Under the pieces are notes generated by a model that searched no databases, was not told the origin of the DNA, and saw nothing but the letters and a program-made list of their open reading frames with translations. A program made the translations under genes and the position numbers. Shown here piece after piece: positions 253 to 47,693 of a stretch of DNA of 54,262 bases; position 1 is the first letter of the stretch; each line of letters starts with the position of its first letter. The stretch comes from Candidatus Uhrbacteria bacterium (lineage in GTDB: Bacteria; Patescibacteriota; Patescibacteriia; UBA9934; GWF2-40-263): the NCBI GenBank assembly GCA_016206085.1, contig JACQSF010000002.1:1-54262 (forward strand). Direction: 5' to 3'.

Positions 253-266
253 ATGTGAAATTTGTA

Positions 267-371
267 AAATTGGCGAGCTGCTTGCTCTTCAGTCGGAAAC
301 TCGCTCGTCGTAGGATTTACCTACGTCTTGCGAGATTTCCGACCTCCAGAGCGGCGCATCTCATCCAATTT
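267..371. repeat. ~105-bp rod-like hairpin element, copy A (tRNA-Leu/tRNA-Met spacer)
   Basis: The first 24 nt (AAATTGGCGAGCTGCTTGCTCTTC) and last 28 nt (CTCCAGAGCGGCGCATCTCATCCAATTT) are identical to 46481-46583. The central 53 nt form a different hairpin. Confidence 0.9.
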
Positions 372-385
372 AACAAATTTCATTG

Positions 386-500: not shown

Positions 501-529
501 ACAATATCAAAAACATCCTGGGCTGTCCA
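501..529 (-). promoter_or_regulatory. Putative sigma70 promoter of the tRNA-Leu/tRNA-Met unit
   Basis: Minus strand TGGACA-17 nt-TATTGT with a TGn extension. Confidence 0.5.
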
Positions 530-546
530 GCAATCGGTCTCTCGAA

Positions 547-837
547 TTATTCATTCTTCAACCCTGCGAAGCCGCCCAAAATAGCACCGACGAGGGTTCC
601 AAGACCCATGCCTAAAAATGGAGCAATGACTTGTGGACCCTCCTCAAACACATCCGGTAGGATGATGATCGAGATATATTTAATCGCGACTCCCAAGATG
701 AGACCCGCGATGAGACCGGCGATCGCGCCACCAACGGAGTCGCGAAGCATGTTAAGGAACGGACTAATTTGTTTTGCCATAAGGAACAAAGATAAGAGTA
801 TACAGACAGCATACTTCTTTCGATGTATTTTTTCCAT
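547..837 (-). CDS. Small Gly-rich membrane protein (hypothetical)
   Basis: 96-aa ORF with two hydrophobic GxxxG-rich helices. Start uncertain (783 is an alternative). Confidence 0.55.
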   Translation of the reverse strand: MEKIHRKKYAVCILLSLFLMAKQISPFLNMLRDSVGGAIAGLIAGLILGVAIKYISIIILPDVFEEGPQVIAPFLGMGLGTLVGAILGGFAGLKNE

Positions 838-13877: not shown

Positions 13878-13901
13878 TCCCCCCGCTCGCGAGCGGGGGG
13901 A
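13878..13901. mobile_element. 24-bp perfect palindrome TCCCCCC-GCTCGCGAGC-GGGGGGA
   Basis: Flanked by a TAGA direct repeat (13874-13877 and 13902-13905) that occurs once at this site in the intact tRNA. Confidence 0.85.
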
Positions 13902-13931
13902 TAGAGCGCTGTCCTCACACGACAGAGGTCA

Positions 13932-13955
13932 TCCCCCCTTTCGCGAAAGGGGGGA
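13932..13955. mobile_element. 24-bp perfect palindrome TCCCCCC-TTTCGCGAAA-GGGGGGA
   Basis: Flanked by a TCA direct repeat (13929-13931 and 13956-13958) that occurs once at this site in the intact tRNA. Confidence 0.85.
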
Positions 13956-14071
13956 TCAGAGGTTCGAGCCCTCTCACGCCCACCAAACCAGACGCTTCCG
14001 GGCGCCTGTTTTGTTTGTCACCGCCGTCCCTTGCCCCATGTCCATTTTCTTGATACGCTTGGAACATCTTT

Positions 14072-14677
14072 ATGTCATTACGATTTTCCCAGTTTGAAGA
14101 GAGATTGTATGACCGGTTTGGACCGGTGGGTGGCGCGGTTGCTTCCTTTTTGCTTGAGATCATCCAGATCATCCTTATCTCAAGTGCGATCATCATTCCG
14201 ATTCGTTACTTCTTGATTCAGCCGTTTTATGTAAAAGGGGCGAGCATGGAACCCAACTTTTACGACCAGGAGTACCTTATTATCGATGAATTGACCTACC
14301 GGTTTCGTGAACCGTATCGAGGAGAGATTGTTGTATTCAAGTATCCTCGCGATCCCAGTCAGTACTTCATCAAGCGTGTGATCGGGTTGCCAGGGGAGAC
14401 GGTCGAAGTCACGGGGGGAAATGTCATCATCTATAACACCGAGCATCCAAATGGGGTCGTGGTTGAAGAAGATTACTTAGACGAATCCACGACCGGCAAA
14501 GTCCGTGTGACACTCGGAGAAGATGAGTACTATGTCTTCGGAGATAATCGTGATTCATCACTGGACTCCCGGAGCTTCGGTTCTATTACTCGTGATGATG
14601 TGATCGGACGTGTGTGGGTCCGCGGTCTCCCCCTCTCTCGTATTACAACGTTTGACCTTCCCACTTACAATCTCTAA
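14072..14677 (+). CDS. lepB: Signal peptidase I
   Basis: TM helix, VKGASMEPN (Ser), RGEIVVF, FIKRVIGLPGE (Lys), GDNRDSSLDSR. Confidence 0.95.
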   Translation: MSLRFSQFEERLYDRFGPVGGAVASFLLEIIQIILISSAIIIPIRYFLIQPFYVKGASMEPNFYDQEYLIIDELTYRFREPYRGEIVVFKYPRDPSQYFIKRVIGLPGETVEVTGGNVIIYNTEHPNGVVVEEDYLDESTTGKVRVTLGEDEYYVFGDNRDSSLDSRSFGSITRDDVIGRVWVRGLPLSRITTFDLPTYNL

Positions 14678-14685
14678 TTGATCCT

Positions 14686-16107
14686 ATGCCATTCAAGAGA
14701 AAAGCTCTAGCCAAAGAACCGGCTCCAAAAAAGGTTTTGAAAGAGGAGCCTAAAAAAGATCTCGATGAGGAGGGTGAGGGAAAATCCGGGAAGACATTTG
14801 AACTGCTTCGTGGATTTCGAGACATCTTGCCGGAGGATCAGGGCAGATGGAACCTTGTGCGTGATACGATTCGTTCAATTGCCGAATCCTACAGCTTCGA
14901 TCGTATCGATCTGCCGATTTTGGAGCGTTCGGATTTGTTTCAGCGAACCATCGGCAAAGGAACCGACATCGTCGAAAAAGAGATGTACGTCTTTACGGAT
15001 CCATCCAATCGTTCTGTGGCGTTGCGTCCGGAGGCGACCGCCAGCGCGGCTCGTGCCTATATCAGCCACGGCATGATTGAGCGGCCACAGCCGGTGAAGA
15101 TGTGGTATTTAGGTCCCATGTTTCGTCACGACCGTCCGCAGGCCGGCCGTTATCGCCAGTTTTATCAGGCGGGATTTGAGAGTTTTGGTGTGGCCGAACC
15201 GATTGTGGATGCCCAACTCATCGTGATTGGTCATCAGATTTTTAAGTCGCTTGGTTTGGACGTAAAAGTTGAGATTAACTCGATTGGCACCTCCGAGTGT
15301 CGCGCCGCGTATCTTACTGAACTTGTCGCGTACTTCCGCCAGCATCGCAATAAACTTTCCGAGGATGACAAGCGGAGACTGCAGAAAAATCCCTTGCGCA
15401 TGTTGGACAGCAAGGAAGAGGTAACCCGTGAGCTACTGCAAAGTGCTCCTCAAATTCTTGATTGGTTGGATGAGACGAGCAAGGAGCACTTCATGAAGGT
15501 GCTTGAGTTTTTGGAAGAGGTGGAGGTGTCCTACCAACTCAATCCCTACTTGGTTCGCGGGCTTGACTACTACTCACACACCGTTTTTGAGTTTACGCTT
15601 CAAGAAGACGTCGGCGACTTGTCGCAAAGTGCGTTGGGTGGCGGCGGACGATATGACGGGCTTGTGGAGATTCTTGGTGGTCGGCCGACACCGGCGTGCG
15701 GATTTGCCCTGGGAATTGAACGCATCGTTCGTGCGTTGGAAGCAAAAGGCGTCAATCCACCCGAGCGTCCACCCGCCCTGGTATTTTTTGCTCAGTTGGG
15801 TGATGCGGCTCGTCGTGTGGGACTGAAGTTGTTTGAGGAGTTTCGACAAGCGGGTGTTTCCGTTGCAGAAGCGTTTGGGAAGAATGCCCTCAAAGGCCAA
15901 CTGGAGGCCGCCAATAGGATGGGGGTAAGACTCACGCTCATTTTAGGTCAAAAGGAAGTGCTCGATGGGACGATTATTATTCGTGACATGGAGTCAGGGG
16001 CGCAGGAGATTGTCGACGTAAAAAAGGTTGTGGGACTTGTGAAAAAGAAGCTCCTCCATGAGGAGGGGGTGGCTCTCCAGAGTCAGACGCCGGTTGTGGA
16101 AGCTTAA
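14686..16107 (+). CDS. hisS: Histidyl-tRNA synthetase
   Basis: RGFRD, LRPEATA, FRHDRPQAGRYRQFYQ, LVRGLDYY, GGGGRYDGL, GFALGIER. Confidence 0.97.
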   Translation: MPFKRKALAKEPAPKKVLKEEPKKDLDEEGEGKSGKTFELLRGFRDILPEDQGRWNLVRDTIRSIAESYSFDRIDLPILERSDLFQRTIGKGTDIVEKEMYVFTDPSNRSVALRPEATASAARAYISHGMIERPQPVKMWYLGPMFRHDRPQAGRYRQFYQAGFESFGVAEPIVDAQLIVIGHQIFKSLGLDVKVEINSIGTSECRAAYLTELVAYFRQHRNKLSEDDKRRLQKNPLRMLDSKEEVTRELLQSAPQILDWLDETSKEHFMKVLEFLEEVEVSYQLNPYLVRGLDYYSHTVFEFTLQEDVGDLSQSALGGGGRYDGLVEILGGRPTPACGFALGIERIVRALEAKGVNPPERPPALVFFAQLGDAARRVGLKLFEEFRQAGVSVAEAFGKNALKGQLEAANRMGVRLTLILGQKEVLDGTIIIRDMESGAQEIVDVKKVVGLVKKKLLHEEGVALQSQTPVVEA

Positions 16108-45973: not shown

Positions 45974-46080
45974 GCCATCCGTAGCTCCAGCACAGGACAT
46001 AGTTATACGCCCTTCTTCGCTAAAGCTACGGAGGGCATCCTTCGCCCCAGCAACAAAAAATACTGCTGGAGCGAAGGATG
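45974..46080. repeat. Cluster of CCGTAGCT/CCTTCGC palindromic repeats between the tmRNA 3' end and GIY-YIG
   Basis: GCCATCCGTAGCT...AGCTACGGAGGGC and CATCCTTCGC...GCGAAGGATG hairpins; the latter overlaps the tmRNA CCA. Confidence 0.75.
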
Positions 46081-46471
46081 GTGGAGCTGGGGAGAATCGA
46101 ACTCCCGTGCGGTAAGGTTTCTCATCTTGATGTTTCCAAGCTCATTCACGCCTCATACCTCGTCACGCTCAAGGCGTGAAGCAATACATGACGAGGAACC
46201 GATCGCAACTCTTACATGTGAGAGATCGGTGACCTCACACGCGAAGCTCGATAATATAACACCCGACTGCTGGCTATCGAGCATGACCAGCGCGGATGGT
46301 TCTGACGCTTACGCGAGAACAGGGGCGAATGAAGGAACGCGCAAAGCGTTCTTGATCATTGCCATGACGTTGTTTGCAGTTGTCGTCTTGCATGGGGAAT
46401 ATTTGCGTGCGACCCATGCTCGCACGACTTGATCAAGATGGAAGAGACTCCCGTCGAAGCCTGTCAGCCCC
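46079..46471 (-). ncRNA. ssrA: tmRNA (one-piece)
   Basis: 5' GGGGCTGACAGGCTTCGAC, 3' GGGAGTTCGATTCTCCCCAGCTCCACCA (G:U Ala identity); tag ORF ANNVMAMIKNALRVPSFAPVLA*; smpB about 2 kb away. Confidence 0.95.
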
Positions 46472-46480
46472 GATCTGTCG

Positions 46481-46583
46481 AAATTGGCGAGCTGCTTGCT
46501 CTTCGCCATGAAAACACCTCACCGACCGTTTTAGGTCGCCTCGGTGTTTTCATGTCTCCAGAGCGGCGCATCTCATCCAATTT
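46481..46583. repeat. ~103-bp rod-like hairpin element, copy B (tmRNA 5' leader)
   Basis: Same 24-nt and 28-nt feet as 267-371; central 51-nt hairpin CATGAAAACACC...GGTGTTTTCATG. Confidence 0.9.
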
Positions 46584-46611
46584 CACCAGATCGTGACTCT
46601 TCCATCGCCAA

Positions 46612-46640
46612 AGACTAGTCAAAAAAAGAGGTTTTGTCAA
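46612..46640 (-). promoter_or_regulatory. Putative ssrA promoter
   Basis: TTGACA-17 nt-TAGTCT. Confidence 0.65.
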
Positions 46641-46667
46641 TGCATCTGTGCTATAATTTTTTTGTCT

Positions 46668-47693
46668 ATGCAGCCGCCACAATCGATCAGCATCTCCACT
46701 GCGACTTTCATCAAGGCTGTGCTTATTGTATTGGGACTTTGGTTTTTATGGTTCATTCGAGACATCGTCGCGATTTTTGTTGCCTCGATTTTATTGGCGG
46801 CACTTATTGAGCCGTTTGCTTCTTGGTTTGCCGCCCGTCGTATCCCACGCGGACTTGCGGTTTTGATCGTGTACACGTGTTTGCTTTCGCTCACGGCAAT
46901 TTTTGTCCTGTTGTTTGTTCCGATTCTTGCTCACCAGGGAGGACAACTGGTCGCCAATTTTTCCAACTCCTATGCACAGACGATGGAATCGCTTGGTCAG
47001 GTGAGACAATTTTCTGCTGACTATGGATTTGCCGATAATCTGACCAATTCATTAGCTGCCATCCAACAAAGCATTACCGACTCCTTTGGTTCATTTTTTT
47101 CAACCGTCTGGGGCGTGGTTGGGAGTGTGGCTGCGCTATTCATCGTTCTGGTTCTCTCATTTTATATGGTCGTAGAAGAAGAGAGGATGCGCAAATACTT
47201 CCGTTCGTTGGCGCCCATTGAGTATCAACCGTATGTAGCACACGTAATGAAGAAAATGTCGCGCAAGATGGGGGAATGGCTTCGTGGTCAGATTATTTTA
47301 GGAGTGATTGTCGGGTTAGCCGTGTACATTGGGTTGACTCTTTTGGGAGTAAAATACGCGCTCGTGCTCGCACTCATTGCTGGACTTCTGGAAGTCGTGC
47401 CGTACGTGGGACCCATCATCTCACTGGTTCCAGCTCTCATCGTCGGCCTCGCACAGTCTGCGCTCATTGGTTTGGCTGTGACGATTCTCTATCTCATTAT
47501 CCAACAACTCGAGAACAATATTCTCGTGCCAAAGGTTATGCAAAAGGTCACGGGACTCAATCCCATCATCAGTATTCTTGCACTCCTTGTCGGCCTCAAA
47601 GCTGGGGGGCTGGCGGGTGCTGTTCTGTCGATTCCCTTGGCCATGATGGGGGTGGTGATCCTCGAGGATTTATTCCGTGATGTAACTGAATAA
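46668..47693 (+). CDS. AI-2E (PerM/UPF0118) family transporter
   Basis: Multi-TM; IPRGLAVL, WLRGQ, EVVPYVGP, QQLENNILVPKVM...GLNP. Confidence 0.92.
   Translation: MQPPQSISISTATFIKAVLIVLGLWFLWFIRDIVAIFVASILLAALIEPFASWFAARRIPRGLAVLIVYTCLLSLTAIFVLLFVPILAHQGGQLVANFSNSYAQTMESLGQVRQFSADYGFADNLTNSLAAIQQSITDSFGSFFSTVWGVVGSVAALFIVLVLSFYMVVEEERMRKYFRSLAPIEYQPYVAHVMKKMSRKMGEWLRGQIILGVIVGLAVYIGLTLLGVKYALVLALIAGLLEVVPYVGPIISLVPALIVGLAQSALIGLAVTILYLIIQQLENNILVPKVMQKVTGLNPIISILALLVGLKAGGLAGAVLSIPLAMMGVVILEDLFRDVTE

Follow-up and report, generated by a model that had tools for sequence, protein, structure and literature searches.

A lineage-restricted palindromic repeat in the tmRNA leader of a Candidatus Uhrbacteria genome is probably a mobile DNA element rather than a small RNA gene

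Introduction

Upstream of the transfer-messenger RNA (tmRNA) gene of a Candidatus Uhrbacteria bacterium lies a long hairpin, here called the rod, which raises a simple question: is it a small RNA gene, or does it belong to the DNA? We addressed this question in the window, by which we mean the whole stretch of 54,262 nucleotides that was analyzed (contig JACQSF010000002.1 of assembly GCA_016206085.1). The window contains two rods, copy A between two tRNA genes and copy B ahead of the tmRNA gene. An original prediction, made from the sequence, proposed that both are transcribed within RNA precursors and that processing releases a structured RNA of about 105 to 130 nt, possibly a small RNA in its own right.

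We found that the rod family obeys two orientation rules at the level of DNA and no rule at the level of transcription. On balance, we favor the view that the rod is a DNA-level, probably mobile, lineage-restricted palindromic insertion element and not an RNA gene. At the tmRNA locus it would be transcribed passively and probably cut by RNase P.

Results

Rod copy B lies in the predicted leader of the tmRNA precursor

The tmRNA gene occupies positions 46079 to 46471 of the minus strand (ARAGORN; full-length match to Rfam RF00023, 116 bits; tag ANNVMAMIKNALRVPSFAPVLA), and local GC skew places its transcription head-on to replication. Reading toward the gene on the minus strand, we found a TTGACA −35 hexamer (46635 to 46640; read from the sequence and conserved with its 17-nt spacer in relatives), the 17-nt spacer, a TAGTCT −10 hexamer of the TAnnnT type (46612 to 46617; identified from the sequence and by comparison with relatives), the segment TTGGCGAT, the segment GGAAGAGTCA, and then a hairpin ending at 46472. 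From this arrangement, the precursor would start at about 46604 to 46606. The hairpin is rod copy B. Its conserved core ("feet" and center) had been delimited at 46481 to 46583 of the minus strand and said to end 9 nt before the RNase P site. We found that the helix extends past this core through a variable, nonconserved outer stem, GATCTG/CAGATC, and that the full unit is 123 nt long (46472 to 46594, minus strand; covariance-model match of 123.6 bits). No gap separates its 3′ end from tmRNA +1. A short leader segment, GGAAGAGTC (46595 to 46603, minus strand), accompanies the rod and is missing from the empty site of the congener G004.

An automated promoter scan did not list the tmRNA promoter because the −10 hexamer fits only three of six consensus positions. 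We therefore relied on comparison of the promoter and leader at the tmRNA loci of 30 relatives (numbered with a G; G000 is the window's own genome). An identical TTGACA-N17-TAGTCT lies upstream of tmRNA in the congeners G002 and G004, and promoters of the form TTGACA/TTGACC-N17-TA(G/T)nnT lie there in four other genera (G005, G010, G012, and G014). In the rod-less G004, G005, and G012, the −10 hexamer ends exactly 8 nt ahead of the mature tmRNA sequence GGGGCTG, so transcription would start at or adjacent to the mature 5′ end. The tmRNA of these relatives would thus be nearly leaderless, with little or nothing for RNase P to remove. G000 retains the same 8 nt (TTGGCGAT) and then has 132 additional nt (46472 to 46603) before GGGGCTG. 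The rod therefore occupies the interval from the predicted transcription start to tmRNA +1, which leaves no space for another promoter. The sequence and the congener promoters therefore bear out the proposal that the TTGACA-17-TAGTCT promoter puts copy B in the tmRNA primary transcript.

Copy B is built of an outer stem and a variable inner stem, topped by an apical hairpin, with three purine-rich internal loops that are conserved (GAUGAGAU/AGCUCGC, CUGGAG/CGAAG, and GAG/UGAG). It folds with −60 to −66 kcal/mol (z of about −8), and none of 200 shuffled sequences was as stable. The minus strand, which is the model strand, reaches −66.3 kcal/mol versus −60.0 for the complement.

Two further observations concern this locus and its annotation. 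On the plus strand at 46630 to 46670, an extended −10 element (TGcTATAAT) precedes a divergent membrane-protein gene, whose ATG at 46669 is about 10 nt away. The element overlaps the tmRNA promoter region back to back, which suggests divergent overlapping promoters and a near-leaderless mRNA. ARAGORN also calls a permuted "tmRNA*" at 13890 to 14694, after a tRNA-Val gene. This call has no Rfam support and is probably false.

Rod copy A fills the spacer of a tRNA-Leu/tRNA-Met unit

Copy A (258 to 382, minus strand; covariance-model match of 130.6 bits plus junction analysis) lies between tRNA-Leu(CAA) (386 to 472) and tRNA-Met(CAT) (176 to 252), the upstream and downstream members of a dicistronic unit on the minus strand (both ARAGORN and Rfam). 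It is sense to both tRNAs, occupies all but 9 nt of the 133-nt spacer, and ends 5 nt from tRNA-Met +1. A promoter-like site, TGGACA-17-TATTGT with a TG before the −10, lies upstream of tRNA-Leu (501 to 529, minus strand). It is the only one, as a scan of the spacer found no promoter-like site. The placement of copy A within the tRNA-Leu/tRNA-Met precursor was therefore correctly predicted.

The flanking segments of copies A and B are 100% identical, and their centers are unrelated in sequence and equally well paired. A rod with the same central hairpin as copy A occupies the Leu-Met spacer of two congeners, sense in G002 as in G000 and antisense in G004; thus, the Leu-Met rod has flipped in place. 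Downstream of tRNA-Met, at 141 to 178, a direct repeat (GACCGTCT...GACCGTCT) lies between an A run and a T run. It is terminator-like at first sight, but it has no inverted repeat, and no terminator is predicted there.

The rod is a dispersed, structurally conserved family restricted to one lineage

We built a covariance model from three rod copies and used it to search the own genome and its relatives. The 877-kb own assembly has 11 rods by this model, plus one longer copy after the 5S gene. Rods occur in 34 of 60 relatives from the same family and order, with 1 to 24 copies each and a patchy distribution, and we found none in 200 genomes from the rest of the phylum Patescibacteria. Nearly all matches in a pattern scan of public genomes were metagenome-assembled genomes (MAGs) of Candidatus Uhrbacteria, Patescibacteria, Parcubacteria, and Kerfeldbacteria. 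Rods are also carried by third-party annotation (TPA) MAG records titled "uncultured Gammaproteobacteria bacterium" (CAZPQJ01, CAYRMN01, CAYSAI01, and others), titles that look mislabeled. At gathering score, Rfam has no family that matches the rod in the window. Even a cutoff of E ≤10 gave no match at the rRNA-spacer locus L003, which holds two rods, and 20 further rod loci gave nothing relevant; no known RNA gene was found beside unlinked rods.

The unit is a noncoding imperfect palindrome of about 123 nt and up to 185 nt. From the outside inward, the consensus has a moderately conserved outer stem (e.g., TAAAACGTCCAAAATTGG), then GAUGAGAUGCG...AAGCAGAUCGCC with a bulged A, a U.G pair, and tandem G.A pairs, then CUGGAG...CGAAG followed by a variable stem with a GAAA/UUUC block, and innermost GAG and UGAG around an apical hairpin (e.g., ACGUAnn...nnUACGU). 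Across 112 aligned copies, 91.2% of cells are standard pairs, 40 of 43 pairs have changed on both sides, and the covariation score is 0.653, versus 0.187 for shuffles and at most 0.137 for slid partners. These pairing statistics are somewhat inflated because the copies were aligned by fitting to the covariance model, but the margin is large. At 15 loci (e.g., L028, L100, L009 [G000:C9:38738-38856], L037, and L156), the rod is nested in a palindrome of about 30 bp, CTATAGTC...GACTATAG, also given as CTATAGTCATCACACCGTGAAATGGGACT...GGAGTCCTGTTTCATGGTGTGATGACTATAG. This palindrome has its own wobble pairs on the same strand and makes a 185-nt composite.

On contig C29 of the own genome (L003/L006, about 443 to 860), a 5S rRNA gene (443 to 551) is followed by a longer, subfamily-2 rod (611 to 737, plus strand) and then by a second 5S 3′ end, gatggtagtgcgtttgcgcgagagtaggtcggcgccaggac. 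A duplicated 5S terminus thus flanks the inserted rod. A role for the rod as a carrier of promoters or terminators was rejected: there is no consistent −10/−35 at its 3′ end, and the outer stems in the tmRNA leader and the 23S-5S spacer have no T run.

One strand of the rod folds better whatever its relation to transcription

We compared the two strands in 141 distinct copies from about 35 genomes, a sample that favors high-scoring matches. The model strand folded better than its complement in 140 of the 141, by 12 kcal/mol on average. The advantage was alike in copies sense to a tRNA (13.0 kcal/mol), antisense copies (12.5 kcal/mol), and unlinked copies (11.3 kcal/mol). The U.G pair is kept in 96 of the 112 aligned copies, and among variable pairs elsewhere we counted 152 G.U versus 77 A.C. 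Matches of the model to the reverse strand score 60 to 90 bits lower, so the orientation calls are reliable. In the 23S-5S spacer of the own genome, the wobble pairs of the rod favor the antisense strand.

The 3′ end of the rod docks on stable-RNA genes

Within the same 141 copies, 58 (41%) have a tRNA or tmRNA gene no more than 40 nt away, 8 of them sitting between two tRNAs. When there is one neighbor, the 3′ end of the model strand points toward the gene in 48 copies and the 5′ end in 1 (p = 2e-13). It follows that copies 5′ of a tRNA or tmRNA are sense and that single-neighbor copies 3′ of a tRNA are antisense. All copies on the 5′ side are indeed sense (40 junctions; gap of 0 to 11 nt, median 6), often in the arrangement GTTTTA-CCT-tRNA. 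On the 3′ side there are 16 junctions, 13 of them from single-neighbor copies, all antisense and with the rod directly against the encoded CCA. At 23S 3′ ends, we found six more abutting copies, also antisense, and several tRNA or tmRNA neighbors that ARAGORN overlooked obey the same rule.

The docking pattern is two-fold (dyad) symmetric. Such a pattern would fit a symmetric duplex or cruciform target, for example the base of the acceptor-stem palindrome, and would not be expected from a target that is polar with respect to transcription or replication.

We also counted promoter-like sites within 90 nt upstream of the rod, using simple pattern rules for promoters and for open reading frames (ORFs). 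Of the 39 sense copies located 5′ of a tRNA or tmRNA, 19 had such a site; the counts were 0 of 15 scanned antisense copies 3′ of a tRNA and 6 of 85 other copies, and 0 to 6% of control flanks had one. The first of these counts shows that the family habitually settles between promoters and tRNAs.

Unlinked rods follow the replication strand

The complete Uhrbacteria chromosome OY970357.1 has its origin at about 1.011 Mb and its terminus at about 0.451 Mb, as judged by GC skew. The model strand lies on the lagging strand in 12 of its 13 rods, none of which is tRNA linked. For most other copies, we took replication direction from the sign of GC skew in 20-kb windows. In 60 further windows of this kind, unlinked rods were lagging in 32 cases versus leading in 8. 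Over these windows, OY970357.1, and G000 together, unlinked rods are lagging in 46 cases versus 9 (about 84%; p = 4e-7). Orientation relative to flanking ORFs looks random, with counts of 7, 7, 5, and 4 across the four classes from crude ORF calls.

Rods linked to tRNAs have no replication bias (sense, 10 lagging and 11 leading; antisense, 3 and 7). These counts refute a unified rule in which the rod follows the tRNA in the direction of the fork, sense at head-on genes and antisense at codirectional ones. In the own genome, local GC skew puts all seven subfamily-1 rods on the lagging strand and, counter to the trend, all five subfamily-2 rods (C12, C33, C15, C2, and C29:611) on the leading strand. 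Orientation in G000 may be subfamily specific.

Rods show signs of mobility, and no candidate partner enzyme tracks them

The C12 and C33 copies of the own genome are identical over 129 nt and have unrelated flanks, with 3-nt direct repeats at their junctions. In G028, four near-identical 185-nt copies also have unrelated flanks, with no target duplication. The tmRNA leader site is filled, always in the sense orientation, in G000, G003, G006, G007, G013, G039, and G021, and is empty in G004, G005, and G001. A GAGTC(A/C)-type segment lies ahead of the rods in G003 and G006. The G002 leader has a hairpin made of the outer stem only, with GTGTCC at the position of GGAAGAGTC.

The tmRNA gene itself can also be invaded. 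In G016 (L043; G016:C84, 1501 to 1973), it is 473 nt long and carries a 141-nt, rod-containing sense insert, placed in a helix loop within the 3′ pseudoknot region; the CCA end of this tmRNA directly adjoins a second rod, which is antisense. The tmRNA of G045 (L050) is 549 nt long, with a different insert. Other irregularities occur at the 5′ ends of rods. At L110 (G035:C12, rod at about 60068), four tandem 15-mers, GCGAACGTACATGTA, lie directly 5′ of a rod that starts with CGAACGTAAAACG, and at L106 another copy is preceded by a truncated 5′ end of a rod. These look like scars of slippage or of abortive insertion.

We looked for an enzyme that could mobilize the rod. Among the 60 genomes, 23 have both rods and Y1 transposase genes, 11 have rods without Y1, 17 have Y1 without rods, and 9 have neither. 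G033 and G048 have 23 rods each and no Y1 (PF01797), and the Y1 genes of the own genome are not beside rods. Because the presence of Y1 does not follow that of rods, we rejected a REPIN/RAYT model. A retroelement model, in which cDNA is primed by the tRNA CCA or made by template switching, would explain the 3′-end rule. We rejected it because reverse transcriptase (RT) is absent from genomes with 20 to 24 rods and shows no association overall; genomes with that many rods lack Y1, RT, or both. A mini GIY-YIG (Ssn-like) nuclease partner was rejected as well: such genes occur in 54 of the 60 genomes and so do not discriminate, and G002 and G021 have rods and no match. Finally, an autonomous parent element was discarded because no protein family recurs next to rods, and a phage vector because viral contigs contained no rod and their two pattern matches were chance matches.

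Discussion

How the rod may behave as a DNA element

The reading that we favor, a DNA-level insertion element, can be spelled out as follows. The rod would be propagated or selected through a single-stranded or cruciform form of its DNA, and a protein may read the folded DNA, guided by its three conserved tandem G.A loops and by the U.G (T.G) pair, which is conserved as well. The element would target a DNA feature with two-fold symmetry, the base of the acceptor-stem palindrome. With such a target, copies 5′ of a gene end up sense and copies 3′ of it antisense. Copy B may have landed exactly at the junction of the tmRNA transcription start and base +1, and landing there would make it a passively transcribed 5′ leader of about 134 nt. 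The primary transcript would begin about 11 nt before the rod, and an RNase P cut at G46471, which is G+1 of the tmRNA, would free a triphosphorylated hairpin RNA of that length. This hairpin, with a helix of about 50 bp, would probably be destroyed by RNase III and exonucleases. Copy A could be released by 3′ processing of tRNA-Leu together with RNase P cleavage at tRNA-Met.

More specifically, the rod might be a previously undescribed element, mobile or maintained by the host, that has no enzyme of its own. It would act as folded single-stranded or cruciform DNA with a G.A-loop scaffold recognized by a structure-specific protein. It would integrate at two-fold symmetric structures (the acceptor-stem base, the 23S terminus, and hairpin tips), and elsewhere its integration or survival would be coupled to replication and strand specific. 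We offer this fuller scheme tentatively, as possible but not probable.

Several points weigh against the rod as a mobile DNA element. We identified no mobilizing enzyme, and in the 60 genomes neither Y1 transposase, RT, nor the mini GIY-YIG nucleases track rods. Target-site duplications are inconsistent, with 3-nt repeats for the C12 and C33 copies and none for the G028 copies or the tRNA junctions. The better-folding strand is on the leading-strand template, the opposite of the classical IS200/IS605 picture. Copies that have diverged and are still fully compensated, and the presence of rods at some sites, such as the tmRNA leader and the 23S-5S spacer, in different genera and families, could reflect long-term purifying selection for a host function. 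Transcription of the rod leader, its release by RNase P, and its decay by RNase III are all steps that we infer. The sampling of high-scoring copies and the model-fitted alignment, both noted earlier, also belong here.

Could the rod be a recognition site for a host protein?

One alternative is that rods are nonselfish chromosomal recognition sites, read as single-stranded DNA by a host protein (a nuclease or a replication-restart or transformation factor), and that their orientation relative to the fork is selected. The precedent is the NTS/SRM hairpins recognized by Ssn GIY-YIG single-strand nucleases (PMC11893778). Rods resemble these in being oriented hairpin repeats, and the strand-specific fold, the conserved loops, and the replication-strand orientation shared by about 84% of unlinked copies would all be expected of such sites. 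The mini GIY-YIG genes of 54 of the 60 relatives, some also beside tRNA and tmRNA genes, point the same way, as do the small GIY-YIG genes beside tRNA-Val and tmRNA in the own genome. However, 26 of the 60 related genomes have no rods and most of these have GIY-YIG genes, and G002 and G021 show the reverse. SRMs are about 30 nt long and flank ssn, a GIY-YIG gene of the cd10448 type, whereas rods, at about 123 nt, are four times that length and do not covary with GIY-YIG genes across genomes. In the own genome, no rod flanks a GIY-YIG gene; the nearest lies across the tmRNA gene from one. No protein family is recurrent next to rods in the loci of relatives, and the tRNA-linked rods lack the replication bias. 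We consider this explanation unlikely.

Could the rod help stable RNAs to mature?

A second alternative makes the rod a host-beneficial cis element for the maturation of stable RNAs, one that would let RNase III enter, insulate folding, or hold back exonucleases. It draws on the strong enrichment of rods at the exact boundaries of stable RNAs, on their persistence from genus to genus in the tmRNA leader and in the 23S-5S spacer, on the long helix that either strand can form (about −52 kcal/mol even on the weaker one), and on an encoded RNase III. The 23S intervening sequences (IVS) are its precedent: they and the rRNA insertions of candidate phyla radiation (CPR) bacteria are sporadic hairpin inserts in stable-RNA units, thought to be removed by RNase III (PMC11270868; PMC4990558). 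Like IVS, a rod can sit at a helix tip (the G016 tmRNA) or at the base of an acceptor stem. However, IVS lie inside mature rRNA and are necessarily sense, whereas rods mostly lie outside the mature RNA, with many in antisense orientation and more than half away from RNA genes altogether. Only the G016 tmRNA rod is a sense insert in a helix of the mature RNA; copy B lies in the leader.

A maturation element also leaves much unexplained: the folding advantage of the same strand whichever strand is transcribed, the polarity of 3′-end docking, the lagging-strand bias of unlinked copies, and the empty sites of close relatives whose tmRNA matches the full Rfam model. Moreover, only a minority of the tRNA genes in each genome carry a rod. 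We think it quite improbable that this is what rods are for.

Is the rod a small RNA gene after all?

The remaining alternative is close to what the original prediction suggested, namely, that the rod is a disguised small RNA gene whose product is cotranscribed, released by RNase P as a stable RNA of about 105 to 135 nt, and active in trans, for example through protein binding by the tandem G.A loops. Copy B, copy A, and about 40 other copies lie in the sense orientation between a transcription start and an RNase P site. Since 40 of the 141 copies are sense and 0 to 11 nt upstream of a tRNA or tmRNA, RNase P would set their 3′ ends, and of 39 sense copies, 19 have a promoter-like site immediately ahead of the rod. 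In sense copies, the transcribed strand is the better-folding one, with its conserved purine-rich loops, and the tmRNA-leader rods of seven genomes are always sense. Genes for RNase P RNA (146 bits) and RNase III are present in the own genome, which makes release of the leader RNA of about 134 nt a reasonable expectation. To this extent the predicted processing stands.

The step from a released RNA to an independent small RNA does not. Rods are a dispersed repeat found in both orientations relative to host transcripts. At least 16 copies linked to tRNAs and 6 linked to 23S genes run antisense to their host RNA; of these, the tRNA-linked rods keep the strand-specific fold, and none of the 15 scanned has an upstream promoter-like site. 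More than half of all copies are away from stable-RNA genes, in orientations that are random with respect to ORFs but not with respect to replication. The center, moreover, is wholly different between copies. Nothing marks the copy B RNA as functional, and the rod is missing from the tmRNA leader of several congeners, including close relatives with a tmRNA that matches the full Rfam model. A small-RNA function for the rod is not supported, and the orientation of the family as a whole argues against a general RNA role. We regard a small RNA gene as very unlikely.

Relation to known repeats

The enterobacterial repetitive intergenic consensus (ERIC, or intergenic repeat unit [IRU]), Correia (NEMIS), BOX, and RUP elements are intergenic imperfect palindromes of about 100 to 150 bp, present in tens of copies and in both orientations relative to genes. 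They are often cotranscribed, form long hairpins that are possible RNase III substrates, and are patchy among strains. Rods are closest in kind to these interspersed palindromes, which are of the miniature inverted-repeat transposable element (MITE) type. In contrast to them, rods add polar docking on tRNA, tmRNA, and 23S termini and a replication-strand bias. The structure of the rod is conserved (three tandem G.A loops and the U.G pair), whereas its stem sequence is almost free. Rods also have no sequence similarity to these elements, no known parent insertion sequence, and inconsistent target duplications. A DDE-type MITE has terminal inverted repeats and a target-site duplication of fixed length; the outer stem of the rod serves as terminal inverted repeats, and 3-nt direct repeats occur at the C12 and C33 junctions and none at those of the G028 copies or the tRNAs.

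Other likenesses are partial. The Rickettsia bellii tmRNA gene contains one of the Rickettsia palindromic elements (RPEs) (PMC1458961). Like RPEs, rods are a palindromic repeat family of a reduced genome that invades RNA genes, as in the G016 tmRNA. RPEs are, however, characteristically in frame in protein-coding genes, whereas we saw rods only in noncoding DNA and tmRNA. The two families are unrelated in sequence, and RPEs are not known to dock with any polarity.

The orientation of IS200/IS608 is biased with respect to replication, which has been attributed to single-stranded DNA at the fork (PMC3971601). Like IS200/IS605 and REP/REPIN elements, which produce no target duplication, the rod is hairpin based and strand specific, and like REPINs, which are doublet hairpins, it has conserved flanks and a variable center. 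REP/REPIN units are 20 to 40 bp long, form inverted doublets, and carry a GTAG/CGTC tag, whereas the rod is a single unit of about 123 nt with no such tag in its consensus. With an IS200/IS605-derived element (PATE), rods share the strand-specific fold and a replication bias (46 versus 9), but they have no conserved target tetranucleotide and no co-occurrence with Y1, and the polarity of the bias is opposite. In the literature on Patescibacteria, we found no described element that combines a loop scaffold with free stems, polar docking on stable-RNA genes, and a lagging-strand bias.

What the rod would mean for these bacteria

If the rod is the DNA element that we favor, a whole order of ultrasmall CPR bacteria carries a repeat that chooses its sites by the shape of the DNA and not by sequence. 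This would be a testable case of structure-directed insertion for which no enzyme, either encoded by the element or co-occurring with it, was found. For annotation, the caution is that leader hairpins like the rods should not be called small RNA genes or regulators of neighboring genes. The element would also help to explain why the stable-RNA genes in these genomes are cluttered with inserts. The tmRNA and many tRNA precursors would bear long hairpins for RNase P and RNase III to clear, and, under the fuller scheme offered tentatively above, rod insertion would rewrite the 5′ leaders and 3′ trailers of a large share of stable-RNA genes across the order.

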